A stretch of DNA of 64,000 nucleotides. Origin: Escherichia phage SmurfNell. The first letter of the stretch is position 1. Every line of letters starts with the position of its first letter. This document shows positions 11,510-37,873 of this stretch, in pieces. The stretch lies in sequence record OR896824.1; one strand, written 5' to 3'. A model generated the notes under the pieces. That model was given only the letters and a program-made list of their open reading frames with translations, did no database searches and was not told where the DNA came from. A program made the position numbers and the translations under genes.

Positions 11510-12088
11510 ATGACAGCCATAGTAGCATTTAAATATAAAGATAAAGTATACTTAGCTGGTGATCGTATGGGTTCTAATGGCTATACGAAACTGCTGGTTA
11601 AAAATCCGAAAGTATTCAAAATCTCTGATGATTTGTACTTCGGATACACTAGTTCCTTCTACATGGGACAATTACTAGAGCATAGCTTTACTGTACCACC
11701 ACGTTTAGCAGATATTTCCGATGATAAATATTTATATACGGAAATAGTACCTAAATTACGTGATATGTTTAACCAGAAAGACTTTGGCGAAAAGAAAAAT
11801 GAAAAATATGCTGAACCTAATCTGGGACAATTTATTATGCTCTACAAAGGAAGAATCTTTATTTTCCAATCTAATGCTTCTATTCTAGAAGTTGAATATG
11901 CCGGTGTAGGCTGTGGAGGAGAAGATGTACTTTCCAGTATTCGTACAGGTTTAGCTATTGCGGATTGTCGAGCCACAGATTTAGATGTAGATGATATATT
12001 TGAAATCATTGATCTGGCTTTTACGCATTGTGCAGATTATATGTGTGGTGTATCTTCCCAACATGATGTTTTAGTAATTGGAGAATAA
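11510..12088 (+). CDS. Ntn-hydrolase / HslV-like (proteasome beta-type) peptidase
   Basis: N-terminus MTAIVAFKYKDKVYLAGD parallels the HslV TTIV...AGD start with Thr2 as likely nucleophile. Confidence 0.5.
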   Translation: MTAIVAFKYKDKVYLAGDRMGSNGYTKLLVKNPKVFKISDDLYFGYTSSFYMGQLLEHSFTVPPRLADISDDKYLYTEIVPKLRDMFNQKDFGEKKNEKYAEPNLGQFIMLYKGRIFIFQSNASILEVEYAGVGCGGEDVLSSIRTGLAIADCRATDLDVDDIFEIIDLAFTHCADYMCGVSSQHDVLVIGE

Positions 12089-12090
12089 AT

Positions 12091-12360
12091 ATGTCTATTC
12101 TTTTATCTGCTTTAGAAGCAAAACAAAATACTATTGCTAGTATTAAAAAGGAAGTAATTGACTTAGAGTCACTTATTGCCGTAGAGATTGACAAAGCCAT
12201 CAAAGATAAAGAATTTAATTGCCACATCCAGGGACTGACTGAATACTCAGAAAACGCTAGAAATAGCGTTATGCAAAAACTTAGCAAACTAGGTTATGTT
12301 GTGGAAGCTAAGTATGAACAGCGTGAAGGTTTTTGGCTTGAAATTGATTGGAGCAAATAA
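12091..12360 (+). CDS. hypothetical protein
   Basis: 89 aa ORF, stop overlaps the RNase H start. Confidence 0.45.
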   Translation: MSILLSALEAKQNTIASIKKEVIDLESLIAVEIDKAIKDKEFNCHIQGLTEYSENARNSVMQKLSKLGYVVEAKYEQREGFWLEIDWSK

Positions 12361-12836
12361 TGTCGGTTTTCCACATATATACAGATGGTGCATGTAAAGG
12401 CAATCCTGGTTTAGGTGCGTGGGGATTCGTTGTCTATAATGATAATGATGATCGTATTGGCTCTAAATCTGGCTTCAGCCCTAAAACTACTAATAACGAA
12501 ATGGAACTTACTGCAATTGTAGAAGTTCTTCGTTGGTCTACTAAGAAAGATAATCGTCCAGTAATTATCTACACTGATTCTGCTTACTGCAAAAATGGTA
12601 TGGAAAGCTGGATGTGGTCTTGGCAGAAGAAAGGCTGGAAGAAGGGAGATGGTGAAACTCCTCTTAATCTAGAACTCTGGCAAGAAGCATTTAAACTAAC
12701 TCAACAGTATATTAACTTCCATGATACCAATCCAACCTTTGTTAAGGTTAAAGGTCACTCAGGTATTCGTGGTAATGAAGAAGTTGATGCTCTATGCAAT
12801 ACTGTAATTACTGAGCAAGAACTTGCTGAGATGTAA
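12360..12836 (+). CDS. ribonuclease H
   Basis: YTDGACKGNPGLGAWG matches the RNase HI DGSC.GNPG motif; ATG at 12360 (track start 12348 is TTG). Confidence 0.8.
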   Translation: MSVFHIYTDGACKGNPGLGAWGFVVYNDNDDRIGSKSGFSPKTTNNEMELTAIVEVLRWSTKKDNRPVIIYTDSAYCKNGMESWMWSWQKKGWKKGDGETPLNLELWQEAFKLTQQYINFHDTNPTFVKVKGHSGIRGNEEVDALCNTVITEQELAEM

Positions 12837-12856
12837 TAAATAATTTAAAAATTCAC

Positions 12857-12885
12857 TTACTTAAAGCCCTCGAATTTAGTATAAT
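12857..12885 (+). promoter_or_regulatory. early promoter with embedded inverted repeat
   Basis: TTACTT-17-TATAAT; AAAGCCCTC (12863-12871) in the spacer is complementary to GAGGGCTTT (12904-12912) covering the RBS. Confidence 0.5.
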
Positions 12886-18789: not shown

Positions 18790-18864
18790 CGGGGTGTAGT
18801 CTAAGGGATAGGCAGGAGTCTTCTAAATTCCTTTATGCAGGTTCGAATCCTGTCACCTCGGCCA
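18790..18864 (+). tRNA. tRNA-Arg (anticodon UCU)
   Basis: Hand-folded cloverleaf: acceptor CGGGGTG/CACCTCG, anticodon loop CTTCTAA, T-loop TTCGAAT, encoded CCA. Confidence 0.65.
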
Positions 18865-18890
18865 ATTTTATTAACTGCTAGGAAAATAAA

Positions 18891-19091
18891 GTGAAAACAC
18901 GATATATAGTAAAAGTAGTAGGTGAACATTCACAAGTAAATACCACCGATGTTACAGCGCTAGCATTTGAAGTAGTCTCCGGTATAGTCATATTTCATAA
19001 CGGAGATATCAAAGCTCCTGAATTTGCTGTGGATGCTAGCCTGTTTATTTCTGCAACTAAAGTAACTGTAGTAGCTAACCCTTCTAAATAA
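18891..19091 (+). CDS. hypothetical protein
   Basis: 66 aa ORF with GTG start directly upstream of the SPFH gene. Confidence 0.3.
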   Translation: MKTRYIVKVVGEHSQVNTTDVTALAFEVVSGIVIFHNGDIKAPEFAVDASLFISATKVTVVANPSK

Positions 19092-19102
19092 TAAGGAAAT
19101 AT

Positions 19103-20047
19103 ATGTTTACTAAAAACACTAAAGAACTGACTTCCGATCAAAAAGTAATTCGTACTATTAAACGTTGGGGCGTTGGTGCTGTAGTTGGTCTTGGCGCTCT
19201 TATTCTGGCTCTCAATTCCTATACAGTTGTTCAGGACGGTACGGTTAAAACTCAGACTTTCCTGGGTAAAGTTAGTCCTAATCCTGTATTGCCGGGGTTC
19301 CATATTGTCAACCCATTCGCCTCTTTTGATACTTTTAGTACGAAAGATATTTCTATGAAACTGGATAAACTTCAGGTTCCTAGCCAGGATAAGTTTAAGT
19401 CCACTGTTGACATTACCGTTATGTTGCAGTTTGATGGTGCTAAAGCTCCTATGAACCGTGTTAACGCAGGTACTCAGGATCAAGCTCTGAACAAGTACGT
19501 TGAAGAGAAGATGCTATCTACGATTCGTGAGTTTGGTAAGTCTGTACCAAAAGCACAAGATCTGTTCGACGCTAAGATTCAGGCTCAACTGCAAACTGCT
19601 ATTCAGCAAGAAGTAGAAGAGTACGCGCGTCCTTATGGTTACACGGTTAAGCAAGTATTCCTTCAGGATATTACTCTGCCACCTGTAATCATGGAACAGG
19701 TACAAAACACAAAAGTTCGTGAAGAACAAGTTAACGCCGCTAAAGCTGAATTGGCTCGTGTTGAACAAGAAGCACAGCAGAAAGTTAAGCAAGCTGAAGC
19801 TGATCGTTCTGCTCGTGAAAACATGGCAGTAGCTAACGAACGTGACGCAGATGCTAAACTGTACGCAGCTAAGAAAGAAGCTGAAGCTAACGCCGCGCTG
19901 CAACGTACCATTACTCCTGAAATGATTCGTTGGAAGCAGCTGGAAGTTGAAATGCTTCGTGCTGAAAAATACCAAGGTGGTGTACCGCAGACTATTGTTG
20001 GTACTGGCTACGATGGTCAAATGATCATGGATATGCGTAACAAGTAA
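19103..20047 (+). CDS. SPFH/band-7 (prohibitin/HflK-like) membrane protein
   Basis: N-terminal TM helix WGVGAVVGLGALILAL, central SPFH-like region, C-terminal Ala/Glu/Lys-rich coiled coil. Confidence 0.55.
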   Translation: MFTKNTKELTSDQKVIRTIKRWGVGAVVGLGALILALNSYTVVQDGTVKTQTFLGKVSPNPVLPGFHIVNPFASFDTFSTKDISMKLDKLQVPSQDKFKSTVDITVMLQFDGAKAPMNRVNAGTQDQALNKYVEEKMLSTIREFGKSVPKAQDLFDAKIQAQLQTAIQQEVEEYARPYGYTVKQVFLQDITLPPVIMEQVQNTKVREEQVNAAKAELARVEQEAQQKVKQAEADRSARENMAVANERDADAKLYAAKKEAEANAALQRTITPEMIRWKQLEVEMLRAEKYQGGVPQTIVGTGYDGQMIMDMRNK

Positions 20048-20069
20048 TAGTTACACGTAATCTTCGAAC

Positions 20070-20106
20070 CAAGCCCGCGTTTCCTCCGAGAGCGCGGGCT
20101 TTTCTG
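20070..20106 (+). terminator. rho-independent terminator
   Basis: AAGCCCGCG...CGCGGGCTT hairpin followed by TTTCTG. Confidence 0.55.
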
Positions 20107-20259
20107 TATTTAAGGCAAAAGAAAAGCCCATAAGTTATTCAACTAAGGTCTTTAGTATTTAATTCTTTAATTCTTTAGAATCATATACTATTATTGTAGC
20201 AACAACGTGCTACCACTAAATGCCTTGAGATTTTTCCACTAAAAAGTTTAAAAATTCGA

Positions 20260-20288
20260 TTGCTTGAACGCTAAATTCTCTGTATAAT
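20260..20288 (+). promoter_or_regulatory. early promoter (TTGCTT-17-TATAAT)
   Basis: consensus hexamers plus ATAAATTTGAGAGAGG box. Confidence 0.6.
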
Positions 20289-20318
20289 ATATTTATAAAT
20301 TTGAGAGAGGAATCAAAT

Positions 20319-21374
20319 ATGATTAAGACTGGTCTAGTAATTGGTAAGTTCGCGCCATTAACGCGTGGTCATATTAACCTAATAAACACAGCAGCAACTA
20401 TGTGTGAACGAGTTATTGTTGTAGTTAGTCATGATAATCGTTGGCTGGATAAGCAGAACACACGTGATCAGGAAGTATTACAGTTAAAGAATCGACTTCG
20501 TTGGTTAGAACAAACTTACGCGGATATTGAGCACATTTCGGTAGAGTACATTATTGAAGATGATATTCCTGAATATCCGAATGGTTGGCCGGAATATGCT
20601 AGAATCCTTAATGAAAATTACGGACATTTGCCTGAGATCACCGTTTTCTCTAGCGAACTAGACTATGATGCAGAATATAAGAAATATCTGCCGAAGTTTG
20701 GTCATTATATTGTAGATTCTGATCGGACTCGTGTTCCAATCTCAGCTACAATGATTCGTAATGATCTTATGAAGTATTGGGAGTTTCTTCCTAGCGTAGT
20801 TCGTAAAGATTACGTGCGTAAGGTTGTAATCATTGGGACTGAAAGCTCGGGAAAGACTACTTTAACAAAATACCTTGCGAAGCTATACAACACTTCGTGG
20901 GTAGAAGAATATGGCCGAACGTATTGTGAAGTTGATCTAGTTGGTAACGAAAATCTACTTATCAGTGAAGATTACAGTAAAATTGCGTTCAGACACAAAG
21001 AGCTAGAGTTTGAGGCAGAACGTACTGCAAATAAGATCATGTTTGTAGACACAAATGCTTTTATTACTGAGTTCTACCACAGACTTTATGAACATCGTAA
21101 GAATCCTGTGGTTACAGCAATTGCAAAAGAAGAACATTACGATTTAGTAATTGTTCTAGCGCCTACTGTTAAGTGGGTAGATGATGGTTTACGTATTAAC
21201 TCCGATCGTTCAATTACTTCTGAACTGTTCGAGCAGATGAAGAAAGAATTTCCAAATCAGTTCCCTGAAGGGCGTACTGTTTACATCGACTCCCCGGACT
21301 ACAAAGTTCGTATGGACGAAGCAGTAAACGCAGTAGACTGGCTGATTCATCACTTTAACGTTGGAGAGTTTTAA
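20319..21374 (+). CDS. nadR: NadR-like bifunctional NMN adenylyltransferase / ribosylnicotinamide kinase
   Basis: N-terminal GKFAPLTRGHINLI (nucleotidyltransferase HxGH-type motif) and central Walker A IIGTESSGKTT; ATG at 20319. Confidence 0.65.
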   Translation: MIKTGLVIGKFAPLTRGHINLINTAATMCERVIVVVSHDNRWLDKQNTRDQEVLQLKNRLRWLEQTYADIEHISVEYIIEDDIPEYPNGWPEYARILNENYGHLPEITVFSSELDYDAEYKKYLPKFGHYIVDSDRTRVPISATMIRNDLMKYWEFLPSVVRKDYVRKVVIIGTESSGKTTLTKYLAKLYNTSWVEEYGRTYCEVDLVGNENLLISEDYSKIAFRHKELEFEAERTANKIMFVDTNAFITEFYHRLYEHRKNPVVTAIAKEEHYDLVIVLAPTVKWVDDGLRINSDRSITSELFEQMKKEFPNQFPEGRTVYIDSPDYKVRMDEAVNAVDWLIHHFNVGEF

Positions 21375-21375
21375 T

Positions 21376-22053
21376 ATGACTAACTATCTTGTAAATGACT
21401 TTAAAAACTGGAAACCTTTGGAATATCTGTGGCTGTTTATAGCAGTCGCCTTTATTAGTTTAGCAAACTATAATGGTACAGCTCTAGATTGGGCTACTGC
21501 AATAACCAATGTGGTTTGTGTTATTCTGGTTGCAAAAGGACGTGTTTCCAACTATATTTGGGGCTTAGTGGGTGTTCTTACATATGGTATTACAGCTTTA
21601 AACGCAGATCTTTATGGTAACGCTGCACTAAACCTGCTATACTACGTTCCTATGCAGTTTTATGGAATGTACTTATGGCATAAAAATAAGCCAAGTAATC
21701 TGCCAGATGTTCCAACTAAGTTTCTGACTAAAGCCCAAGCTCTGCTGACTCTAGGGATTCTAGCAGTAGCCACGTTAGGGTATGGTAGTTTCTTAGCTAC
21801 TACAGCTGATCCATTCCCAATGCTCGATGCATTTACTGCGGTTGGTAGTGTGATCGCTATGTGGCTTATGGTTAAGCAGTATGCCGAGCAGTGGCTGATC
21901 TGGATTGCTATTAACATTGGTACTGTGTACATTTGGCTTGTAACTGCTCAATCTACAGGTGCATCTTATGCAATCCTAGCAATGTGGCTAGTATTCTTAG
22001 GTAACTCTATTATGGGAGCCTATAAAGGATACTTTGTACGCGTTAACAAATAA
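21376..22053 (+). CDS. pnuC: nicotinamide riboside transporter PnuC-like
   Basis: About 225 aa polytopic membrane protein rich in Trp/Tyr, translationally coupled to the NadR-like gene. Confidence 0.55.
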   Translation: MTNYLVNDFKNWKPLEYLWLFIAVAFISLANYNGTALDWATAITNVVCVILVAKGRVSNYIWGLVGVLTYGITALNADLYGNAALNLLYYVPMQFYGMYLWHKNKPSNLPDVPTKFLTKAQALLTLGILAVATLGYGSFLATTADPFPMLDAFTAVGSVIAMWLMVKQYAEQWLIWIAINIGTVYIWLVTAQSTGASYAILAMWLVFLGNSIMGAYKGYFVRVNK

Positions 22054-22100
22054 AGTAGTTATAGCCCTCGCTTAGAGGGCTATTATACAGAAATTTTCAC

Positions 22101-22129
22101 TTGCTTAATATAGAAAATTTCTGTATAAT
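22101..22129 (+). promoter_or_regulatory. early promoter (TTGCTT-17-TATAAT)
   Basis: consensus hexamers plus ATAAATTCGAGAGAGG box. Confidence 0.6.
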
Positions 22130-22159
22130 ATATTTATAAATTCGAGAGAGGAATCAAAC

Positions 22160-22456
22160 ATGAAACGCATTGTACTTGCATTGACTCTAGTATCTACTTC
22201 TGTATTTGCTGCTCCGCAACAGGAACTTTGTCAAGTTCAGGTTTGTAATAAGCTAGAACGATTTACTCTAAACATTTGGTCCCATATTAAAGATAATATG
22301 GGTGAACAGTGTTTTGATATTGTTCTGCCAAAAGAACAGGCTATTCCTGGTGCTGTTCTTAGCTCAGAATCACGTTGGTGGCAGGGTTCTTCTATCAATC
22401 CAACTAAGAAGTCAGTGACACGTATCAAACAAGTATATCAGTGCAAGGTTCAGTAA
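22160..22456 (+). CDS. secreted/periplasmic hypothetical protein
   Basis: Signal peptide MKRIVLALTLVSTSVFA; several Cys. Confidence 0.5.
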   Translation: MKRIVLALTLVSTSVFAAPQQELCQVQVCNKLERFTLNIWSHIKDNMGEQCFDIVLPKEQAIPGAVLSSESRWWQGSSINPTKKSVTRIKQVYQCKVQ

Positions 22457-22464
22457 AATTTCAC

Positions 22465-22493
22465 TTGCTTAATGTCGAAATTTTCTGTATAAT
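22465..22493 (+). promoter_or_regulatory. early promoter driving a tRNA operon
   Basis: TTGCTT-17-TATAAT, 15 nt upstream of tRNA-Ser. Confidence 0.6.
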
Positions 22494-22507
22494 ATATTCA
22501 TAAATTC

Positions 22508-22601
22508 GGAAGATTAACCCTAATGGTAAGGGAGCTGTTTGCTAAACAGCCAGTAGCTGTGGAGACACGGTGTGCCAGTTCGAATCTGGCATCTTCCTCC
22601 A
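22508..22601 (+). tRNA. tRNA-Ser (anticodon GCU), class II
   Basis: Acceptor GGAAGAT/ATCTTCC, anticodon loop TTGCTAA, long variable arm, T-loop TTCGAAT, CCA. Confidence 0.7.
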
Positions 22602-22606
22602 GATTT

Positions 22607-22684
22607 GGTTCTCAAGCTCATTTGGTATGAGCCGTCGCCTCATAAGCGAAAGGTAGGTAGGTTCGAATCCTCCGGGAGCCACCA
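22607..22684 (+). tRNA. tRNA with CAU anticodon (Met, fMet or Ile2)
   Basis: Acceptor GGTTCTC/GGGAGCC, anticodon loop CTCATAA, T-loop TTCGAAT, CCA. Confidence 0.7.
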
Positions 22685-22701
22685 ATTAATTAGGAGACTA
22701 T

Positions 22702-22887
22702 ATGTCACGCTTTCGAGAAATTGCTCAAGAGCTAGAAGAATGTGCCTGCCCAAAATGCTTCGGAGCAGGTGAATGGAACGATGCTGAACCTGGTGATACA
22801 TGGTATAATACATACGTTTGTACACATTGTAATAGTTCTGGTATTAATCCTGAATGCGGTATTTCTCTAGATATTGAGCGAGGCTAA
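22702..22887 (+). CDS. zinc-ribbon small protein
   Basis: CACPKC...CTHCNSSG double Cys pairs. Confidence 0.45.
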   Translation: MSRFREIAQELEECACPKCFGAGEWNDAEPGDTWYNTYVCTHCNSSGINPECGISLDIERG

Positions 22888-23221
22888 GATGGATATCTAC
22901 ACTACACCAGCAGTAAACCTGATTGGCTCTTGCCTTGTGCATTTCCGCTTCTTCCAAACGGATGATAGCAAAGAGGAGTATACCTATCCTCTGATGGATT
23001 TTCAGATTGAGGACTTCTTCCGTGAAGTGCGTAATATCTCTGAGAACTTCTATTATGGCATGGATAAGGAAGACTTTGACATTAAGTTCCCTATAATCTC
23101 TCGTTATTTCCTAGAGCAGTCCGATGCTCGGTTTGAGAAGATTGAACACATGGAAGTAGCCTGGGCTATCCAGTTCGAAATTACTGGCTTTGCTCGATAC
23201 ATTCAAGGTTACGAACTATGA
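22874..23221 (+). CDS. hypothetical protein
   Basis: 115 aa ORF. Confidence 0.45.
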   Translation: MSEAKMDIYTTPAVNLIGSCLVHFRFFQTDDSKEEYTYPLMDFQIEDFFREVRNISENFYYGMDKEDFDIKFPIISRYFLEQSDARFEKIEHMEVAWAIQFEITGFARYIQGYEL

Positions 23222-23313
23222 AATTAAAAGATTATTATATTGGTTGGTTTGTAGGACTAATAGTAGGATTTTCACTGGGCTACAACTTGTATCAACTGAT
23301 AAACTGATTACAT

Positions 23314-26228: not shown

Positions 26229-26302
26229 GCGTTCGTAGTTAAAAGGTATAATTTTTGGTTGCCAACCAGAAGTTGAGGGTTCGATTCCCTCCGACCGCAC
26301 CA
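26229..26302 (+). tRNA. tRNA-Gly (anticodon GCC)
   Basis: Acceptor GCGTTCG/CGACCGC (one mismatch), anticodon loop TTGCCAA, T-loop TTCGATT, CCA. Confidence 0.65.
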
Positions 26303-26550
26303 AATTTAGGTTTCTGCTTCCTAGAGAACTGACGCCTAGATAAACAAGGCGATGAGTTTCCGGCCGGTTCTAGTCGCTGAAAATCCTCCCGACCAGGTAG
26401 GTGTAAGTAAACGAAAGTTTACTTATTAAGTAAGTCCGACACATCGGCGGGTGTGTTCTAGTACTTAAAGAAGGTCTCGCAAACTTTCTCGCTAGCATGA
26501 GTTGATAGCTCGGTGACTTACCTAATAAGTAAATTTATTAAAAAATGTAG

Positions 26551-26579
26551 TTGCTATTTAGCTTAATTCTCTGTATAAT
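26551..26579 (+). promoter_or_regulatory. early promoter driving a tRNA operon
   Basis: TTGCTA-17-TATAAT upstream of tRNA-Pro. Confidence 0.55.
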
Positions 26580-26611
26580 ATATTTTATAAAGTGAGTTAA
26601 CAAAGAATATT

Positions 26612-26689
26612 CTCCGTGTAGCTCAGTTTGGCCAGAGCGTTTCGTTTGGGGCGATAGGGTCGGGGGTTCAAATCCTCCCACGGAGACCA
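26612..26689 (+). tRNA. tRNA-Pro (anticodon UGG)
   Basis: Acceptor CTCCGTG/CACGGAG, D-arm GCTC..GAGC, anticodon loop TTTGGGG, T-loop TTCAAAT, CCA. Confidence 0.75.
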
Positions 26690-26695
26690 AACAAT

Positions 26696-26773
26696 TGCGG
26701 GTTAGATCTCTGGTAGAGATCGCTAGTCTCATAAGCTAGAAAGAGGTAGGTTCGATTCCTGCACCCGCTTCCA
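26696..26773 (+). tRNA. tRNA with CAU anticodon (second copy; initiator-like 1-72 mismatch)
   Basis: Acceptor TGCGGGT/ACCCGCT with U1xU72 mismatch, anticodon loop CTCATAA, T-loop TTCGATT, CCA. Confidence 0.65.
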
Positions 26774-26794
26774 ATTTAATAGAAGGATTTCTAA

Positions 26795-26959
26795 ATGAAA
26801 TTGTTTCGTTTAAAAGTAAGTGATATACGTTCTAGTAAAGATCGTAAGAAGTATCCACTAGCTCACTACGGTAAAGATGAAAACGAAGTGATGGCGGAAT
26901 TTGGTATTAATCATCCTTACTTGAAAATATACTCTATCAAAGAAGTATACATGTATTAA
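26795..26959 (+). CDS. small hypothetical protein (54 aa)
   Basis: ORF with AAGGA RBS between two tRNAs, below the track cutoff. Confidence 0.35.
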   Translation: MKLFRLKVSDIRSSKDRKKYPLAHYGKDENEVMAEFGINHPYLKIYSIKEVYMY

Positions 26960-26961
26960 AT

Positions 26962-27040
26962 AGATCGCTAGCTCAATTGGTTTAGCAGCACCCGGCTTTT
27001 AACCGGAAGGTTCTGGGTTCGAGTCCCAGGCGGTCTACCA
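26962..27040 (+). tRNA. tRNA-Lys (anticodon UUU)
   Basis: Acceptor AGATCGC/GCGGTCT, anticodon arm CCGG-CTTTTAA-CCGG, T-loop TTCGAGT, CCA. Confidence 0.75.
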
Positions 27041-27057
27041 ATTTAAAGGAATTTGTT

Positions 27058-27375
27058 ATGAATATTAACAAAGTTCTAGAAACAATATCAGAAATGTCTG
27101 GTAGAGCTGGAAAACGCTTTACTGAACTATGTATTAAAAATCAAAAAATACCAGAACATCAATGTCATTATTGTCGAGACTGTGAACAATACCATGAAAT
27201 GTGTGTGGTTGAAGATTGGATCTGGGATCAGATAAGAAAAGAACAATCCAAAGATATTGTTCTATGTTTTACTTGTATGGAACGACGTTTAGGACGTAAA
27301 ATTACTCTTAAAGATCTTAAACATGTTCCCTGTAACGCTCCTTACTTCATTGGTTTTAGAATGGAGAGATTTTGA
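27058..27375 (+). CDS. Cys-rich zinc-binding protein
   Basis: CHYCRDCEQYHEMC and CFTC motifs. Confidence 0.5.
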   Translation: MNINKVLETISEMSGRAGKRFTELCIKNQKIPEHQCHYCRDCEQYHEMCVVEDWIWDQIRKEQSKDIVLCFTCMERRLGRKITLKDLKHVPCNAPYFIGFRMERF

Positions 27376-27518
27376 TGATAATCTGGTTTTACTTAATGAA
27401 ACAAAAAGTCAAGCAGTACAACGTATTTTCTGCTGATTTTACTATTGGAATGTTCTTAGCAGGATTATGTGAGTTTCTGTTTGAAGCATTCTTAATCGGA
27501 AGTCTTTTGCTCGGTTAG
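27375..27518 (+). CDS. small membrane peptide (47 aa)
   Basis: Hydrophobic ORF overlapping the previous stop, below the track cutoff. Confidence 0.3.
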   Translation: MIIWFYLMKQKVKQYNVFSADFTIGMFLAGLCEFLFEAFLIGSLLLG

Positions 27519-27582
27519 TTTAATGGGAGAACCCCGTCTTTACACGGCGGTTGCGATAGTTCGATTCTATCACCGAGTACCA
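27509..27582 (+). tRNA. tRNA-Val (anticodon UAC)
   Basis: Acceptor GCTCGGT/ACCGAGT, anticodon arm CCGTC-TTTACAC-GGCGG, T-loop TTCGATT, CCA. Confidence 0.65.
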
Positions 27583-27601
27583 ATTAACTCAAAATAAGGA
27601 A

Positions 27602-27961
27602 TTGCAAATGCAATTATCAAGCAAGGTTCAAGGCTACTTCGGTCATGTAACAATGGAGTTCGCTATCTCTAAAGGTTGGGACTTCGAACAAGATTTAGCT
27701 GAGTTCTACAAAGATATTGATCTGAACGTACCGTACATGGGACTCTCTACTGGTCAGGAAATCACAGAAGCCGATGTATTCAAGGCAAGTCAAGGTGAGA
27801 TAACACCTAGTTTTGCCGAGTTCTGGTTAGGAATTACTCTGAAAGATGATGCACCGGATGGTGGTGTGGTTATGCAGAGTATGCACTCTGGAAGCTCTGA
27901 TTACCTTTTCGTTAGCGACGTTAAGGAAATACAAGAAATCTGCAAAAATGTACTTGCTTGA
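27602..27961 (+). CDS. hypothetical protein
   Basis: 119 aa acidic ORF. Confidence 0.5.
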   Translation: MQMQLSSKVQGYFGHVTMEFAISKGWDFEQDLAEFYKDIDLNVPYMGLSTGQEITEADVFKASQGEITPSFAEFWLGITLKDDAPDGGVVMQSMHSGSSDYLFVSDVKEIQEICKNVLA

Positions 27962-27982
27962 TACTTAATTTCTTGTTATAAT
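27954..27982 (+). promoter_or_regulatory. early promoter driving a structured leader and tRNA operon
   Basis: TTGCTT-17-TATAAT; transcript would start with the TTGATGAGGAGAAATCCTCATCAA hairpin. Confidence 0.55.
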
Positions 27983-28018
27983 ATTTATATAAATTGATGA
28001 GGAGAAATCCTCATCAAA

Positions 28019-28244
28019 GTTCACTAAGGTATTAGCTCGACCTAGGACTGGCTGCCAAAAAGCACGGTTGCAATTAGACCCCTAATGGCGGGGGATACTT
28101 TGCAAGAAGTTCTAGATTAGTCCACTAGATTCAGCGGCAACTGAATAGTGTATCGGGTTTGTGAAGAGCGGTTATCCTCTACTGGCTAATGTCTGAGGGT
28201 AATACGCACGCCGAGCTAATAGCCTTAGTAAACTTAAAGATTTT
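28019..28244 (+). other. non-coding leader between promoter and tRNA-Ala (possible small RNA)
   Basis: About 225 nt without an ORF, GC-balanced unlike the AT-rich spacers. Confidence 0.25.
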
Positions 28245-28318
28245 GGGGATATAGTTTAATGGTAGAACATCTGCTTTGCACGCAGAAGACGAGGGTTCAA
28301 CTCCCCCTTTCTCCACCA
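28245..28318 (+). tRNA. tRNA-Ala (anticodon UGC)
   Basis: Acceptor GGGGATA/TTTCTCC with G3-U70, anticodon arm TCTGC-TTTGCAC-GCAGA, T-loop TTCAACT, CCA. Confidence 0.6.
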
Positions 28319-28324
28319 AAATTT

Positions 28325-28400
28325 GGGGTCATAGGTTATTTGGTTAAACTTACTGCCTTGCAAGCAGTGGAACTCAGTTCAATTCTGAGTGACTCCACCA
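28325..28400 (+). tRNA. tRNA-Ala-like second copy (anticodon UGC)
   Basis: Acceptor GGGGTCA/TGACTCC with G3-U70, anticodon arm ACTGC-CTTGCAA-GCAGT, T-loop TTCAATT, CCA. Confidence 0.5.
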
Positions 28401-28413
28401 AATTAGAGGAAGC

Positions 28414-28875
28414 ATGGCTAGAACAGATATATTGGAAAGAAAGGATGAAATTCTTCTCTGGATAGAAGAAAATCAACCCAAAGCTGAAATTGCTAGAAGA
28501 TTACGCTGCAAAGTTGATACACTGAATACTTATCTGAAAAAGATGGGAATACAATATTCAGGTAACTCTGCTAGAAAAGGTTTTATACGTTCTGAGATAC
28601 AGGATGGGTATATTCCGGCAGTGAATTACTTTTACAAAAATAGCCCAATATCTTCTAGTCAGCTTAGAATAAAGATACTACGTGATGGCTTAAAACCTCA
28701 CAAATGTGAAAATTGTAATTTATCTGAATGGATGGGAGTTCCAATCCCCTTAGAGTTAGAGCATAAAGATGGTGATCATTATAATAATGAGTGGGATAAT
28801 TTAGCTTTATTATGTCCCAACTGTCATACACTAACAGATACACATTCAGGTAAGAATAAAGGAACATACGCGTGA
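28414..28875 (+). CDS. HNH endonuclease with N-terminal HTH, inserted in the tRNA island
   Basis: C-terminal HKCENCN...EHKDGDHYNNEWDNLALLCPNCH HNH motif. Confidence 0.75.
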   Translation: MARTDILERKDEILLWIEENQPKAEIARRLRCKVDTLNTYLKKMGIQYSGNSARKGFIRSEIQDGYIPAVNYFYKNSPISSSQLRIKILRDGLKPHKCENCNLSEWMGVPIPLELEHKDGDHYNNEWDNLALLCPNCHTLTDTHSGKNKGTYA

Positions 28876-28946
28876 TTGATGGAATTGGCATACATACCGT
28901 CCTTAGAAGTCGGGTTTTGAGGGTTCGAATCCCTTGTCACGCACCA
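28870..28946 (+). tRNA. tRNA with UAG anticodon (Leu-type), class I architecture
   Basis: Acceptor GCGTGAT/GTCACGC, anticodon loop CTTAGAA, 5 nt variable loop, A73, CCA; scaffold resembles the tRNA at 23314; 5' end overlaps the HNH stop. Confidence 0.5.
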
Positions 28947-28963
28947 ATTTTGTAGTAAACAAC

Positions 28964-29063
28964 GGAAGAGCAAATCGATAGGTGACGAAAACCGCTTGGA
29001 AAGTGGCTGACTTGTGAAAGCAGGCTTGAGAGTTCGAATCTCTCTTCTTCCGCCAAACAATAG
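28964..29063 (+). tRNA. tRNA-like element, about 100 nt, fold unresolved
   Basis: Complementary termini GGAAGAG/TTCTTCC, T-arm GAGAG-TTCGAAT-CTCTC, G73, CCA; too long for a standard tRNA. Confidence 0.3.
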
Positions 29064-29069
29064 AAGATA

Positions 29070-29151
29070 GGACGTAGTGGTACGTAACCGGTCTTGAAAA
29101 CCGGCCCGCTGTAGTGATACGGTGATGGTTCGACTCCATTATCTTCTGCCA
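29070..29151 (+). tRNA. tRNA-Ser (anticodon UGA), class II
   Basis: Acceptor AGAAGAT/ATCTTCT, anticodon arm CCGGT-CTTGAAA-ACCGG, long variable arm, G73, CCA. Confidence 0.7.
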
Positions 29152-29466
29152 AATCTTGAAGTATGCCGGAATCGGTAGACGGGGCTTCCTAAAGGGCGTA
29201 AGAGGAACATCCACTCCTCATAAGATACCCGAAAACGAGGCTGAGATAAATGGTCTATCTCGTGAAGGTTCAAGTCCTTCTGCTTCTTGATATTCAATGG
29301 CTCAAAGAGTAACGGTGCACCTTTCTAGAGAATTTTCTGGGCGAGAATCCAGAAGTAATCAACTAGTTGTTAGTGTGATGAGTTTCGGAGAGCCGCCACA
29401 ATTGAAGTCTTTAGAATGGGTATCGCCCTTTAGCCCCTCCGAAAGGGATAACTAGAGATTTCAATT

Positions 29467-29543
29467 GTGGCTATATCATAATTGGTTAATGATCCTGATT
29501 GTGAATCAGGCCTATGTGGATTCGAATTCCACTAGCCACCCCA
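29467..29543 (+). tRNA. tRNA-His (anticodon GUG)
   Basis: Acceptor GTGGCTA/TAGCCAC, anticodon arm CCTGA-TTGTGAA-TCAGG, C73, CCA. Confidence 0.75.
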
Positions 29544-29549
29544 AATATT

Positions 29550-29624
29550 GCGTCCTTATTTCAATGGAAAGAATGTAAAGCTACGAACTTTACGATCGGG
29601 GTTCGATTCCCTGAGGATGCACCA
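29550..29624 (+). tRNA. tRNA-Arg (anticodon ACG)
   Basis: Acceptor GCGTCCT/AGGATGC, anticodon arm GTAAAG-CTACGAA-CTTTAC, A73, CCA. Confidence 0.75.
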
Positions 29625-29648
29625 ATTAACTTATATAGGAAATAAAAT

Positions 29649-29849
29649 ATGGCTGATTTCTGCAAAGAATGCTCTATCGATATGTGGGGCAAAGATACTG
29701 GTGATCTTTCTGGTCTGATTACAGAAGCCGAAGTTAAAGAAGGCTATGGTGCTGTTGTAATCTGTGAAGGTTGTGGTATTATTCGTGTTGATCATAATGG
29801 TAAACGTCTAGAAGAACCAGATCCAATTGCCACGGTTCCTGTAGAATAA
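29649..29849 (+). CDS. zinc-ribbon small protein
   Basis: CKEC...CEGCG motifs. Confidence 0.45.
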   Translation: MADFCKECSIDMWGKDTGDLSGLITEAEVKEGYGAVVICEGCGIIRVDHNGKRLEEPDPIATVPVE

Positions 29850-29856
29850 AAATTAT

Positions 29857-29932
29857 TGGGATGTAGATCAATTGGCAGATCGTCGGCCTCTGACTCCGAA
29901 GGTTCCACGTTCGATCCGTGGCATCCCAGCCA
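29857..29932 (+). tRNA. tRNA-Gln (anticodon CUG)
   Basis: Acceptor TGGGATG/CATCCCA with U1-A72 and G73, anticodon loop CTCTGAC, CCA. Confidence 0.65.
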
Positions 29933-29938
29933 AATACT

Positions 29939-30014
29939 TGGAGAGTAGTGTAACGGTTAGCACAACGGCCTTTGACTCCGTTAATGGTAGGTTCGATTCC
30001 TCCTTCTCCAGCCA
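29939..30014 (+). tRNA. tRNA-Gln (anticodon UUG)
   Basis: Acceptor TGGAGAG/TTCTCCA with U1-A72 and G73, anticodon loop CTTTGAC, CCA. Confidence 0.65.
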
Positions 30015-30020
30015 ATTTAT

Positions 30021-30095
30021 GCGTGATTAGTTCAGTGGCTAGAATAACTGGCTTCCAACCAGTAGACACGAGTTCGACTCTCGTATCCCGCACCA
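30021..30095 (+). tRNA. tRNA-Gly (anticodon UCC)
   Basis: Acceptor GCGTGAT/ATCCCGC, anticodon arm CTGG-CTTCCAA-CCAG, T-loop TTCGACT, CCA. Confidence 0.7.
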
Positions 30096-30111
30096 AATAT
30101 AAGAAAACGTT

Positions 30112-30333
30112 ATGGACGTTTTTGAGTTTCGTAATAAAAACCCTAGTAGACGAGTTTTAATTATTGGTGAAACATATCGAGCTTATGAGCAAGAAGATGG
30201 TTCGGTTTTATTAAATGATGAAAAGCAAGGCTATAGTTTTCATCCAGAAGAAACATATGAGGAATTTCGTACTAAGTTTCTTTTACCAGACTGGCTAGCA
30301 ATAGCTGAGCAAAGAGAACCCGAAGATGGCTGA
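30112..30333 (+). CDS. hypothetical protein
   Basis: 73 aa ORF. Confidence 0.45.
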   Translation: MDVFEFRNKNPSRRVLIIGETYRAYEQEDGSVLLNDEKQGYSFHPEETYEEFRTKFLLPDWLAIAEQREPEDG

Positions 30334-30488
30334 TAATCTAAAGCTAAAGGTAGATAAACAAATGAAGTGCGTTGAGGTTGAGTTGGGTGAAGAACGTTTA
30401 AAACTCTCCTTCGAATTCTTACAACAGTTGGCTATGACAGTAATGTCTGATAAGTCTCCTGTATTTGAAAAAGAAATTCCGTTGAAAT
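30321..30488 (+). CDS. small hypothetical protein (55 aa)
   Basis: ORF overlapping the previous stop, below the track cutoff. Confidence 0.3.
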
Positions 30489-30500
30489 AACGGGTTTATT

Positions 30501-30575
30501 GCTCCTAAAGCATTGCTGGCGATGCAGTTGCCTTGTAAGCATCTGAACCGGGTTCGATTCCTGGTGGGAGCACCA
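30501..30575 (+). tRNA. tRNA-Thr (anticodon UGU)
   Basis: Acceptor GCTCCTA/TGGGAGC, D-arm GCAT..ATGC, anticodon loop CTTGTAA, T-loop TTCGATT, CCA. Confidence 0.7.
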
Positions 30576-30590
30576 AATTTAAAAATTCAT

Positions 30591-30620
30591 TTGCCTTCTC
30601 TCTTATTTCTTGTTATAATA
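30591..30620 (+). promoter_or_regulatory. early promoter (TTGCCT-18-TATAAT)
   Basis: consensus hexamers plus ATAAATTAATGAGAGGG box. Confidence 0.55.
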
Positions 30621-30649
30621 TTTATATAAATTAATGAGAGGGAAACCAA

Positions 30650-30943
30650 ATGAAACGTTATCTTTCTGTCGTGTTCCAAACTGGTGGTCAACGCTACACT
30701 TATGAATTTCCTGAGTCCTGGAAAATTAAAGAAGGTGATCAAGTTGTTGTATTAACACCTCGTGAAGGCTTCAAAGTAGTAACGGTTAAACAAGTATTTC
30801 CAAAAGATCACGAACCATCTAAGTCTATTCAGTACAAGATGATTCATGGTCTAGTTCGTAAAGTACCACGAACTGAGGTAGAAGTAGATAAGACTGGTGA
30901 AGCTAAATACCAGTATACTTCTTACTTAGATGAAATGATGTAA
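30650..30943 (+). CDS. hypothetical protein
   Basis: 97 aa ORF. Confidence 0.5.
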   Translation: MKRYLSVVFQTGGQRYTYEFPESWKIKEGDQVVVLTPREGFKVVTVKQVFPKDHEPSKSIQYKMIHGLVRKVPRTEVEVDKTGEAKYQYTSYLDEMM

Positions 30944-30944
30944 T

Positions 30945-31020
30945 GCTCTGATAGTTCAACAGGTTAGAACAGGCGACCGATAATCGTCAAATCTTGGTTC
31001 GATCCCAAGTCGGAGTACCA
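30945..31020 (+). tRNA. tRNA-Ile (anticodon GAU)
   Basis: Acceptor GCTCTGA/TCGGAGT, D-arm GTTC..GAAC, anticodon arm GGCGA-CCGATAA-TCGTC, T-loop TTCGATC, CCA. Confidence 0.65.
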
Positions 31021-31026
31021 AATTAT

Positions 31027-31099
31027 AGTTAGTTGGCAGAGCGGTTATGCACCTCCTTCATACGGAGCGACTACAGTGGTTCAAATCCACTACTAACTA
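31027..31099 (+). tRNA. tRNA with CAU anticodon (third copy), no encoded CCA
   Basis: Perfect acceptor AGTTAGT/ACTAACT, anticodon loop TTCATAC, T-arm AGTGG-TTCAAAT-CCACT; followed by ACTA rather than CCA. Confidence 0.45.
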
Positions 31100-31470
31100 C
31101 TAAACAGAGGATCAGGTAATTGTACCAGATCCTGCTGAGAAGAGAGTCCACATTCTATAAATGGCCGGGCGTGACAGCAGGAAGTAGACTGCAACTCCAT
31201 GCTATCCAGGAGTATAAATGTAGAAGCTAAGACTTTAGATAGCCATTGTCTTAGCGTGAGCAATCACGTAGTTGCAACAGACCTGGAAGATCGCAACGTT
31301 AAAATCAAAGTTCCAGTGCTTATTTATCTAATCGAGACCATCAATCTCACCGGAATGCTAGCACCCCAACAGTAGCTAGTGATTAGATAATAAGCAAGCC
31401 TGCCTTCCAGTTTTTATCTTGCTTCTGGGTTAACAAAAAGCTGAGCCAAATTCTAACATCAGGGAGATCT
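31100..31470 (+). other. structured non-coding region downstream of the tRNA island
   Basis: 370 nt without an ORF of 60 aa or more; higher GC than flanks; hairpins such as GGATCAGG...CCAGATCC. Confidence 0.25.
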
Positions 31471-35123: not shown

Positions 35124-35822
35124 ATGAGAATCATTTCTAAATTCGCCGATGTGTATGACTTGCAGAACAGTTTATTCGACCCCGATCGTGTGTGGGAGCG
35201 TAAAACTGAAGAGTTACTGGTAAAAGTAACTGATGATGCAGAAAAGAACATTGTGCATAATCGCCAAGTATTTCGTGATGGTTCACTATCTTTCCGTGGC
35301 GACTTCGAATACTTTGTAAACCCACTGTTTGTTGCAGGTGAAGTTTACTGGTTACATGAGCTATACTGCTGGCATCCAGCATTTAGTTTCAAAACGTTCA
35401 ACCTCGACGCTATGTTCGATAAAATGGAAGAGATGGGATTACATGCTCGCTCTTACCTACTGGATAAGAGTCGTGTGGATGTTCGTGAAACAATGCGTGA
35501 TTTGCTTGTTGAAGCAAAACCTAAAGCAGAACGTATCTTGTCCGAGCTGCGTGTACCGATTGCATATGTGAAAGGTATTAAGAAGAACGATAACGACGAT
35601 GTTCGTAACTTCGTGATTCAGACTAACATTCGTTTCCATCAGTCCGGTATTCCGTGGCAGGAAATTGAAAGTAACTTATACCGTTTACACCAAGTTCTCG
35701 AACAGTATATCTTCGGTGTACTAGGAACTGGTGAGCCTGATATGATTAAAGTATCAGATAAAGACAGGTTAGCAGCACATGGATTTGATACAAAAACTTC
35801 TTTCAGGAATATGGCAAGGTAA
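35124..35822 (+). CDS. hypothetical protein
   Basis: 232 aa ORF. Confidence 0.55.
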   Translation: MRIISKFADVYDLQNSLFDPDRVWERKTEELLVKVTDDAEKNIVHNRQVFRDGSLSFRGDFEYFVNPLFVAGEVYWLHELYCWHPAFSFKTFNLDAMFDKMEEMGLHARSYLLDKSRVDVRETMRDLLVEAKPKAERILSELRVPIAYVKGIKKNDNDDVRNFVIQTNIRFHQSGIPWQEIESNLYRLHQVLEQYIFGVLGTGEPDMIKVSDKDRLAAHGFDTKTSFRNMAR

Positions 35823-36228
35823 GTGGTATATCCTGGGAGCAGGTATAGCGATAGGCATCGGATTCGGTGCTTATCACTTAGTAAATAAGGTAGAAACTCT
35901 AGCAGGTGATCTTGCAGTAGCTACTAAAAAGATCTCTTCTCTAGAGACTTCTCTTAATAATGTGAAAGCTGAGAGCGAACTTCGTGAGACTCGTATGAAT
36001 CAGTATTTCACAATGAATAATGTTTCCCAAGCAGATCTAGACAAGAAAATTAGTCAGCTTGATAAAGCGCTTAGTCGTCAAGACATTATAGCTGCAAAGC
36101 CTGGATTGGTTACATTAATTGCTAAAAAGCAGAGTAAGGAGTTCGAGGAAAGATTAGCATGTTTAACTGGAAACTTGGAGTACTGCTCGCAGCCGCAATC
36201 ACAATCACAGGCTGTGCAGAAGAAATAA
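35779..36228 (+). CDS. i-spanin-like (Rz-like) membrane protein
   Basis: N-terminal TM helix WYILGAGIAIGIGFGAY followed by a coiled-coil periplasmic domain; 3' end overlaps the lipoprotein gene in another frame. Confidence 0.45.
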   Translation: MDLIQKLLSGIWQGKWYILGAGIAIGIGFGAYHLVNKVETLAGDLAVATKKISSLETSLNNVKAESELRETRMNQYFTMNNVSQADLDKKISQLDKALSRQDIIAAKPGLVTLIAKKQSKEFEERLACLTGNLEYCSQPQSQSQAVQKK

Positions 36229-36512
36229 AACCAGAGCCTTCACATGAGTTAAAGCAAGCTCATGTTGACTGGCCCAAAGGACTTCAGCCGTGTAGCTTTG
36301 ATTTCAAATTCGAAAAGAAATTAGCTACAAATGGTGAAGATGGCGTAGTAGTTGTTGTACCATACAAAGATTGGAATGCAAAAGCAAAATGCGAGGAAGC
36401 AGTTTACTCTTACATTTCACGGCTGACTAGTATGGTTTGCTTCTACCGCCAAGATTTACAAGAAAAACGTTGCTTAGTTTACTATCCACCCATTACAAAT
36501 AGGAAAGATTAA
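36159..36512 (+). CDS. o-spanin-like (Rz1-like) lipoprotein
   Basis: Signal peptide with lipobox LLAAAITITGC; start embedded in the preceding gene. Confidence 0.45.
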   Translation: MFNWKLGVLLAAAITITGCAEEIKPEPSHELKQAHVDWPKGLQPCSFDFKFEKKLATNGEDGVVVVVPYKDWNAKAKCEEAVYSYISRLTSMVCFYRQDLQEKRCLVYYPPITNRKD

Positions 36513-37261
36513 TGTCAGTATTAGTCGGTTTACATGGTGAGGCTGGTGCAGGGAAAGATACCGTTGCAAAATTAATGATTGACTGGTGCAATGACACGTA
36601 TCCAACGTGTTTATCCCGTCGTTACAGTTTTGCTAAACCCGTTTACGAACTTGCATCCGTAATCCTCGGGGTAACTCCAGAGTTTCTGGGAGAGCGCAGG
36701 GGAAAAGAGATTAGTCAATGGTTTACAGTGACTCAATCTCAATTGGAGCGAGCTAGAGACGTATGGTTTAAGTACGGTATTGATAAGTTTGAGGACTTCT
36801 CGTACATTTGGCCGATTTTTGAAGGAAAATACCTTGATCCTCAGCAATTGATTGGACAAGAAGATGATGCACTCTATAGTGTGTTTATCTCCCCAAGAAA
36901 GATGCTACAGCTTGTAGGTACTGAGTTAGGAAGGCAGCTGGTGCATGAACGCATTTGGCTCATAATTCTGGAGCAATCCATCGCTAAAGACGACCCAGAC
37001 GTCGCAATAGTTACAGATGTGAGATTCCCTAATGAAGGAGAGTTAATCCGAGAAACCAATCATCTAGATATGGATTCTTTGTTGATAAATGTAGTACCAG
37101 CAGAGCAGGAATACACTATTAAGACAGATCATCCGTCTGAAAAAGGTATCCCAGCTAAATACATAATCCATGAACTGGTGAATCCGTTCATCGGTATGGA
37201 TAACCTTAAACTAGAAGTGTATAACTTCTGTGACTTAGAGCTAGAACCACTAGTTGGATAA
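36512..37261 (+). CDS. deoxynucleoside monophosphate kinase
   Basis: N-terminal P-loop VGLHGEAGAGKDT resembling the T4 gp1-type dNMP kinase motif. Confidence 0.55.
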   Translation: MSVLVGLHGEAGAGKDTVAKLMIDWCNDTYPTCLSRRYSFAKPVYELASVILGVTPEFLGERRGKEISQWFTVTQSQLERARDVWFKYGIDKFEDFSYIWPIFEGKYLDPQQLIGQEDDALYSVFISPRKMLQLVGTELGRQLVHERIWLIILEQSIAKDDPDVAIVTDVRFPNEGELIRETNHLDMDSLLINVVPAEQEYTIKTDHPSEKGIPAKYIIHELVNPFIGMDNLKLEVYNFCDLELEPLVG

Positions 37262-37273
37262 TTAAGGATCACT

Positions 37274-37873
37274 ATGACTAATAAGAAAGAAGAAAAGACT
37301 AACCTGTTCCACTCCGTTCACCAATCTAACGAGTATACTTTTTTCTTTGACGAGGAACTCGGGCCAGCAGATGAGTATCGTGACTTATCTATGATCCTGG
37401 TGCAGGCTAATGAAGGAGATGTCATTAATCTGATGATTAATGGGCCTGGTGGTTATGTTGATACTGCTGCACAGCTATCTAACCTGATCGCTAACTGTCG
37501 TGGAACGGTTATTGGACACCTGCTCGGTCCTAGTGCTTCTGCTTACTGCACAATCTTCCTGTCTTGCCACGGTTGGGTTGTTCATCCACACTCTACGCTT
37601 ATGGGACATACGTTCTCTGGCGGATTCTGTGAGAAGGGTCAAGAAATCAAGAAAGCCTATGAATCTTACAATCAGTTTGTAGAAGATATGATGCTCGATA
37701 TCTACTTCCCGTTCTTCTCCATCGAAGAAATTGAGGATATGGTAAAAGAGAACAAGAATATCTATCTCAACAGCAAGGAAATCAATAAGCGTATTGAGAA
37801 ATTGGCAGCATACCGCGAGGAGCAATTCAGCAAAGCTCAATGTCCTCACCCTGAGGAACATGGAGAAGTGTAA
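37274..37873 (+). CDS. ClpP-like serine protease
   Basis: INGPGG, GPSASAYC (Ser) and MGHTFSGG (His) align with the ClpP INSPGG...QAASMG...MIHQPLGG pattern. Confidence 0.55.
   Translation: MTNKKEEKTNLFHSVHQSNEYTFFFDEELGPADEYRDLSMILVQANEGDVINLMINGPGGYVDTAAQLSNLIANCRGTVIGHLLGPSASAYCTIFLSCHGWVVHPHSTLMGHTFSGGFCEKGQEIKKAYESYNQFVEDMMLDIYFPFFSIEEIEDMVKENKNIYLNSKEINKRIEKLAAYREEQFSKAQCPHPEEHGEV

Follow-up and report, generated by a model that had tools for sequence, protein, structure and literature searches.

The window analysed here, a stretch of 64,000 bp from Escherichia phage SmurfNell (sequence record OR896824.1), contains two peptidase genes on the plus strand, one encoding an HslV-like N-terminal nucleophile (Ntn) hydrolase and one encoding a ClpP-like serine peptidase (Table 1). 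Both open reading frames (ORFs) had been picked out as protease genes in a first-pass annotation, an assignment that was borne out in position and by matches to Pfam and PHROG families. Plausible ribosome-binding sites (RBS) precede both genes. Comparison with orthologues gave ratios of nonsynonymous to synonymous substitution (dN/dS) of 0.03–0.07 for the HslV-like gene and 0.08–0.13 for the ClpP-like gene. Such low values reflect strong purifying selection, clearly indicating that both ORFs are genuine genes under selection and not chance ORFs.

The HslV-like protein matched the Pfam family Proteasome (PF00227) with 38.5 bits (cut-off 22.4) and PHROG 1040, 'peptidase HslV family' (1.9e-21). 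In the alignment with E. coli HslV (the E. coli HslV and ClpP references used for the residue checks were drawn from NC_000913), Thr2, Asp18 and Lys34 corresponded to Thr1, Asp17 and Lys33. The threonine that directly follows the initiator Met (MTAIV), already pointed out in the annotation, is thus the counterpart of the HslV nucleophile. The position of HslV Ser124, in the GSGG motif, is occupied by Cys135. Structure prediction with AF2, performed for both proteins on monomers only, gave a confident model (pLDDT 89.7), which Foldseek matched with HslV of several species, the Betaproteobacteria proteasome homologue (BPH) and 20S beta subunits (TM scores 0.63–0.72, probability 1.0). The best PDB matches were all 12–20% identical in sequence, with the top TM scores for BPH (PDB 5ovu and 5ovs; 0.70/0.72), and identity to HslV was ~14–20%. 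The protein is a proteasome-beta-fold Ntn hydrolase without a propeptide.

E. coli HslV (ClpQ) has the same Ntn fold, the same Met-Thr start without propeptide, the same catalytic residues, a G-x-G-G motif at the Ser124 position and a similar size (~180–190 aa). The phage protein differs from it in having Cys for Ser124, an insertion of 11 residues in the pore loop between helix 2 and strand 7 (H2-S7), a signature of its own (GYT[SH]SF[YR]MGQ) and no hslU-like neighbour; the HslU partner of HslV is usually encoded adjacently. No NCBIfam family was matched at E ≤ 0.01, the presence of an HslV model in that release being presumed. Lys28 of E. coli HslV, which we take to be a contact for the C-terminus of HslU, aligned with Leu, and a literature search for published HslU-interface residues gave nothing usable. 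BPH, 20% identical to the HslV-like protein, also has no propeptide, and it combines an elongated pore loop with the lack of a known partner unfoldase (PMC5777263), just as the phage protein combines a long loop with no evident unfoldase. However, the pore loop of BPH is strongly acidic, whereas that of the phage protein, KDFGEKKNEKYAEPNLG, is mixed Lys/Glu and Lys-rich, for which reason we do not regard the phage protein as a BPH. Furthermore, BPH is a cellular gene (mostly betaproteobacterial), whereas the HslV-like family is mostly borne by phages and prophages.

A tblastn search with the HslV-like protein yielded 197 phage records. In 125 of these, all of the Epseptimavirus type, identity was at least 90%, and the proteins of Eps7, Seafire, 3-29 and many other Epseptimavirus-type records were 100% identical; the remaining records, at less than 60% identity, included Erwinia phage KEY, Aeromonas and Vibrio phages and Asteriusvirus jumbo phages. 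A profile made from 18 homologues was searched against 1.84 billion representatives clustered at 50% identity, and found 6,704 clusters at E ≤ 1e-3 and 836 at E ≤ 1e-30. Residue conservation was counted in the best 148 diverse representatives of the family. Thr2, Asp18 and Lys34 were each 100% conserved, and 141 of the 148 start with 'MT', indicating that there is no propeptide in this family. Position 135 was more variable, with Cys in 87, Ser in 51 and another residue in 11. Family loci in bacterial genomes were found in many phyla, including actinomycetes, Deinococcus and planctomycetes; terminase, portal and S78 prohead-protease genes nearby show that these loci are prophages. When the neighbours of the HslV-like gene were clustered over 87 loci, each gene family was present at 8 loci at most. 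Seven of the recurrent neighbour clusters were annotated, with terminase, portal and S78 prohead protease among them but no AAA+ ATPase. Likewise, no AAA+ gene adjoins the HslV-like gene in the window, in Seafire, KEY or 121Q, or in an Aeromonas and a Vibrio phage. Taken together, these results place the HslV-like proteins in a separate branch of the proteasome-beta superfamily that is carried by phages.

The ClpP-like protein, an orthologue of T5.042, matched the Pfam family CLP_protease (PF00574; 28.8 bits, cut-off 20.2) and PHROG 1827, 'ATP-dependent protease' (1.8e-86). It failed the NCBIfam ClpP model NF001368 (18.2 bits versus 249) as well as the model for ClpP-related head-maturation proteases, NF045542 (38.2 bits versus 120), and is ~17% identical to E. 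coli ClpP. Ser89 and His112 aligned with Ser97 and His122 of E. coli ClpP, within GxxxS and MxH motifs, so that on alignment the nucleophile is present in this protein as it is in the HslV-like one. The Ser and His motifs noted in the annotation therefore stand, with the correction that the triad is Ser-His-Asn and not a full Ser-His-Asp: Asp171 of E. coli ClpP is replaced by Asn162. The same Asn is present in T5.042 and close relatives, whereas distant orthologues (≤60% identity) have Asp at this position. Since Asp is kept outside the T5/Epseptimavirus group, the Asn is a feature of this clade and not of the family. Ser89 and His112 are invariant in orthologues down to 36% identity.

The AF2 model of the ClpP-like protein (pLDDT 82.5) contains the ClpP core, the handle helix E and an extra long C-terminal helix, and is uncertain at the first 19 residues and at residues 116–122. 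The latter, a GGFCEKG loop ahead of the handle helix (37619-37639), form the sole internal segment with pLDDT below 50; in ClpP, the region before the handle helix takes part in ring-ring contacts and gating. The top 50 Foldseek matches were all ClpP (TM scores 0.6–0.7, root mean square deviation ~2.6 Å). In the viral structure library BFVD, the protein belonged to a phage-specific clade of 'Clp protease' proteins (TM scores 0.75–0.86), a group that scored clearly above generic ClpP-type proteins for this query. Listeria ClpP1 and the ClpP1/2 complex were among both the sequence and the fold matches. Structure prediction, which the annotation had proposed as a check, thus agreed with the fold assignment of both proteins.

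For the pocket of E. coli ClpP that binds ADEP and the IGF loop, 16 residues have been listed (bioRxiv 10.1101/2023.03.01.530711). Most of these are replaced in the ClpP-like protein, with V44R, F82N, Y60N, I90H, L114H and L189A as changes relative to E. coli, and the polar or charged changes are conserved in the ClpP-like phage family (V44R, F82N/T, Y60N, I90H, L114H/Y). The N-terminal axial-loop segment of E. coli ClpP has no aligned counterpart, and the N-termini of the phage family vary in length and sequence. Judged by this alignment, the ClpP-like protein is without both recognised unfoldase-contact elements. Compared to bacterial ClpP (MEROPS S14) it shares the fold, the aligned Ser and His and the handle helix E, and it differs from E. 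coli ClpP in the triad Asn, in these two elements and in its extra, conserved C-terminal helix. Listeria monocytogenes ClpP1 (identity ~23%) likewise has a Ser-His-Asn triad and is unable to bind AAA+ chaperones (PMC9257651), which resembles the predicted loss of the pocket in the phage protein. However, ClpP1 stacks on the ClpP2 of its own cell, whereas no such partner is known for the ClpP-like protein.

The ClpP-like gene is present in all ~440 T5-like records, with ~85–92% identity to T5.042 and T5-like orthologues, and more distant homologues were found in ~900 other phage records. In 8 non-T5 phages inspected, it was located among early or metabolic genes and never adjoined portal or capsid genes. 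In the window, too, neither peptidase gene is next to structural genes, as the annotation had stated. Both lie in the early region, the HslV-like gene between thymidylate synthase and RNase H and the ClpP-like gene among spanin, deoxynucleoside monophosphate (dNMP) kinase, holin and endolysin genes; the closest identified structural gene is ~24 kb away. The sole structural gene identified among the window ORFs scanned encodes a receptor-binding tail protein (61727-63508). Knock-down of T5.042 by CRISPRi-ART was scored as 'Not Fit', i.e. no fitness cost (PMC11879866 supplement). Phage BF23 has a separate prohead protease, ORF164, and the authors of that study described the function of its Clp protease as currently unknown (PMC10644984). 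In the literature, no function was found described for the T5 Clp protease or for phage HslV-like proteins. The separate protease of BF23, the knock-down result and the 38 bits against a cut-off of 120 for the head-maturation model show that the ClpP-like protein is not the prohead protease, which supports the earlier suggestion that the two proteins do not act in capsid maturation. The ClpP-like gene is universal in T5-like phages, yet dispensable in the laboratory.

Table 1. Features of the two peptidase loci in the SmurfNell window (positions are those of the window)
Feature	Position	Strand	Basis and remarks
Hairpin AATAGCCC-TTCG-GGGCTATT	11416..11435	+	Read from sequence; just past thymidylate synthase stop; terminator-like
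Promoter-like TTGCTT-17 nt-TATAAT	11451..11479	+	Read from sequence; upstream of HslV-like gene
RBS AGAAGGA of HslV-like gene	11496-11502	+	Read from sequence
HslV-like Ntn threonine peptidase gene	11510..12088	+	ORF of 192 aa; N-terminus MTAIV
HslV-like residue codons	Thr2 11513-11515; Asp18 11561-11563; Lys34 11609-11611; Cys135 11912-11914	+	Alignments
89-aa ORF	12091..12360	+	3 nt past HslV-like stop; PHROG 13270 (unknown function), 2.1e-61
Upstream genes of apparent operon with ClpP-like gene	35779..37261	+	Gene order as annotated in TrudiGerster and T5
i-spanin	35779-36228	+	ORF, translation
o-spanin	36159-36512	+	ORF, translation; lipobox
dNMP kinase (dnk)	36512-37261	+	Pfam DNMK, PHROG 139
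ClpP-like serine peptidase gene (T5.042 orthologue)	37274..37873	+	ORF of 199 aa
ClpP-like residue codons	Ser89 37538-37540; His112 37607-37609; Asn162 37757-37759	+	Alignments
Intrinsic terminator	37882..37907	+	Scan; strong, with 11-bp stem and T run straight after ClpP-like stop; annotated alike in T5
Promoter-like TTGTAA-17 nt-TATAAT	37977..38005	+	Scan; ahead of holin; T5 promoter annotated there
Holin gene	38030-38686	+	Pfam Phage_holin_T, 2.6e-114

Between thymidylate synthase and the HslV-like gene, two elements were read directly from the sequence (Table 1). The hairpin was missed by the terminator scan because its T tail is too weak, and the promoter-like element was not listed by the scan because half of its -35 hexamer (3 of 6 positions) departs from the consensus; this hexamer, TTGCTT, presumably resembles that of the T5 N25 early promoter. 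Here (11412-11509) the window is without ~357 bp that are found in Seafire and most of the 99% identical relatives, where in Seafire they encode a small 'membrane protein' (354-bp coding sequence). The 89-aa ORF downstream of the HslV-like gene is annotated as 'hypothetical' in Seafire and is missing from T5 along with the HslV-like gene. Comparison of window region 10557-12836 with T5 (NC_005859, 46412-47861) showed that in T5 thymidylate synthase is directly followed by RNase H. As this junction is empty in T5, the HslV-like gene together with the 89-aa ORF constitutes an accessory insertion, which only some T5-like phages carry. An HslV-like insertion at the identical junction, with other small flanking ORFs, is present in Erwinia phage KEY, and the 89-aa ORF showed no similarity to the small ORFs adjoining the HslV-like genes of 121Q or a Vibrio phage.

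Longer and duplicated forms of the HslV-like gene were also observed. Aeromonas phage 2L372D contains a tandem pair of HslV-family genes (183 aa and 294 aa), the longer with a C-terminal extension, and some metagenomic members of the family are 300–390 aa. In jumbo phage 121Q, genes 473–475 encode a weakly ClpP-like 'protease', an 86-aa ORF and an HslV-like protein side by side, directly followed by a Sir2 gene and, a few genes on, by a PhoH gene. A linkage of the two peptidase genes based on 121Q was considered and rejected: its protease shows no detectable similarity to the ClpP-like protein of the window and is below the Pfam threshold, and the small ORFs are unrelated. We regard the adjacency in 121Q as a lead only.

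The ClpP-like gene appears to be the last gene of a spanin-dnk operon and to be transcribed as such; the promoter ahead of the holin gene sets this operon apart from the holin and endolysin genes. The position between spanin and holin genes suggested a role in lysis, but in other phages the homologues lie away from lysis genes, and lysis was therefore rejected as the main explanation. In phiPsa374, Rheinheimera phage Barba33A, Alteromonas phage PT11-V22, Vibrio phage F102, Cronobacter phage CR9 and two IMG/VR contigs, a ClpP-like 'ATP-dependent protease' gene is near or adjoining a gene for a PhoH-like ATPase. In the window, phoH (4851-5612) is ~32 kb from the ClpP-like gene. A pattern scan of IMG/VR for ClpP-like genes returned mostly generic ClpP-type proteases, with phoH near in only 2 near-duplicate loci. 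The ClpP-like protein and PhoH may be functionally linked.

About 440 records of T5-like phages matched the DNA surrounding both peptidase ORFs. Epseptimavirus phages (Seafire, SE3, 3-29 and others) are 99% identical in the thy-rnh segment, and the highest identity of the dnk-holin segment is 92%, to TrudiGerster. The content of the window is that of the T5 early and pre-early regions, with genes for Sir2, NrdD, PhoH, NrdA/B, dihydrofolate reductase and thymidylate synthase, and further genes for spanins, dNMP kinase, T-type holin, endolysin and phosphatases, followed by A1 and dmp. It also contains 30 tRNA genes on the plus strand (18790-31100), including 3 for tRNA-Met and duplicated genes for Ala, Gln, Gly, Leu, Lys, Arg and Ser; T5-like phages typically carry such a tRNA cluster. 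The tail protein gene follows within ~1.7 kb of the pre-early genes A1 (56784-58448) and dmp (59275-60009). This proximity suggests that in the record the left end is joined to the late region, as would be the case if the sequence had been assembled in circularly permuted form or with its terminal repeat collapsed.

On balance, we slightly favour the view that these are two separate, non-structural phage peptidases, which most likely form homo-oligomeric chambers of their own and are not plugged into host ClpX/ClpA or HslU. Host methionine aminopeptidase would expose Thr1 of the HslV-like protein, which, much like BPH, could then work alone as a threonine peptidase and degrade peptides or loosely folded proteins during infection. 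For an HslV relative that stands alone without unfoldase, BPH provides a precedent (PMC5777263). The ClpP-like protein would be a serine peptidase that is independent of ATP or self-sufficient, has a low or regulated activity and gives a conditional advantage, e.g. by clearing peptides and proteins or by cutting a particular host or phage protein. Several points weigh against this view. That the chambers stand alone is something we infer, with monomer models as the structural basis. On its own, E. coli HslV has poor peptidase activity, and a Thr1 enzyme that lacks an activator may be similarly weak. The mapping of the ClpP pocket is based on an alignment at 17% identity, anchored by the Ser and His motifs, in which single positions may be shifted. 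The triad Asn renders Listeria ClpP1 inactive unless it is paired with ClpP2 (PMC9257651), and by this precedent the activity of the T5-type ClpP-like protein may depend on a partner ring or be minimal. Finally, 3 peptides of the Clp protease (ORF45) were found, with a low signal intensity, in purified virions of BF23 (PMC10644984), which hints at a virion-associated role.

Such a role, in which one or both proteins would be morphogenetic or virion-associated, with the ClpP-like protein for example cleaving the tape-measure protein pb2 or being packaged and injected, would also account for the cleavage of T5 pb2 after R1127, for which no protease was named (PMC10038345). Head-maturation proteases (NF045542, PHROG 1684) share the ClpP-clan fold and weak profile similarity with the ClpP-like protein; they provide its best curated-model match, though far below the cut-off, and PHROG head-maturation families score 1e-20. 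However, the ClpP-like gene does not adjoin portal or capsid genes, its homologues elsewhere sit among metabolic genes, and both peptidase genes are early-region genes at ~24 kb from the closest identified structural gene. T5-like phages have a dedicated prohead protease, T5.042 can be knocked down without fitness cost, and T5 assembles normally without an HslV-like gene. At ~1000-fold under that of the major capsid protein, the intensity in BF23 virions would fit contamination; dihydrofolate reductase was picked up by the same mass spectrometry (PMC10644984), and the presence of both proteins in the particles could be due to packaging or to contamination. We therefore consider a virion role unlikely. 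About equally unlikely is the proposal of the first-pass annotation that the phage rings dock host unfoldases, the HslV-like protein HslU and the ClpP-like protein ClpX or ClpA, to form hybrid ATP-dependent proteases that redirect host proteolysis. Both proteins do have the fold of a host proteolytic core, ClpX, ClpA and HslU are present in the host (E. coli or Salmonella), and since neither gene has a phage-encoded AAA+ neighbour, any ATP-dependent action would need a borrowed partner. Against this stand the replacement of most of the 16 pocket residues across the ClpP-like family and the missing axial loop, in a region that is not conserved. Moreover, the HslV-like protein has low identity to HslV, no NCBIfam HslV match and a longer pore loop, and its family is present in phages and prophage loci of hosts such as actinomycetes, which are not known to have HslU. 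As the ClpP-like protein seems to be without both unfoldase-contact elements and the HslV-like family shows no signs of unfoldase dependence, hybrid complexes with ClpX or HslU are not supported by these comparisons.

The host proteases could also be reached without an unfoldase site. Like Listeria ClpP1, a Ser-His-Asn heptamer of the ClpP-like protein might stack on a host ClpP heptamer, giving a hybrid tetradecamer with altered ClpXP/ClpAP output. Both odd features of ClpP1, the triad Asn and the lost chaperone-binding pocket, are present, and ClpP1 and ClpP1/2 are among the sequence and fold matches. However, identity to E. coli ClpP is only ~17%, the ring-contact stretch before the handle helix (residues 116–122) is predicted with low confidence, the Asn is limited to the T5/Epseptimavirus clade while other orthologues keep Asp, and the C-terminal helix is family-specific and absent from ClpP. 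We judge this stacking improbable, a little more so than unfoldase docking or a virion role. The same Asn, which accompanies the inactivity of isolated Listeria ClpP1, could alternatively mark a scaffold of ClpP fold with little or no catalytic activity, which might for example inhibit host Clp components or serve as a decoy for them. An invariant nucleophile and base, conserved down to 36% identity, would be unexpected in a pure scaffold; distant members keep Asp, and the gene is under strong purifying selection, making this the least likely of the explanations considered. A broader speculation, to which we give about as little credit as to stacking, is that the ClpP-like protein may be a phage counterpart of ClpP1 that re-tunes host ClpXP/ClpAP by stacking on ClpP, and that in addition or instead the HslV-like proteins, with at least 6,700 clusters at 50% identity, may be phage-specific stand-alone proteasome-like chambers for host takeover or counter-defence.

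Both genes are already annotated in hundreds of phage genomes and, as identical or near-identical proteins have been deposited and annotated, the finding itself is already known from annotation. T5.042, 'ATP-dependent protease', and the Epseptimavirus 'peptidase HslV family' proteins are direct orthologues without material difference. For the ClpP-like protein, the present analysis adds the triad variant with Asn in the T5/Epseptimavirus clade and the degradation of the surface on which unfoldases dock. For the HslV-like gene it adds that the gene is accessory, where it is inserted, how large its family is and that this family is carried by phages. Large virulent phages repeatedly carry genes for self-compartmentalising peptidases away from their structural modules. 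For the ClpP-like gene T5 is a tractable model, and the triad Asn, the lost unfoldase pocket and an HslV-like family without AAA+ partner narrow the mechanisms worth testing. The same features argue that 'ATP-dependent Clp protease' and 'HslV family', the names usual in databases, claim more than is known. A ClpP-like gene that is universal in T5-like phages and dispensable in the laboratory fits what would be expected of a conditional role in host takeover or counter-defence.

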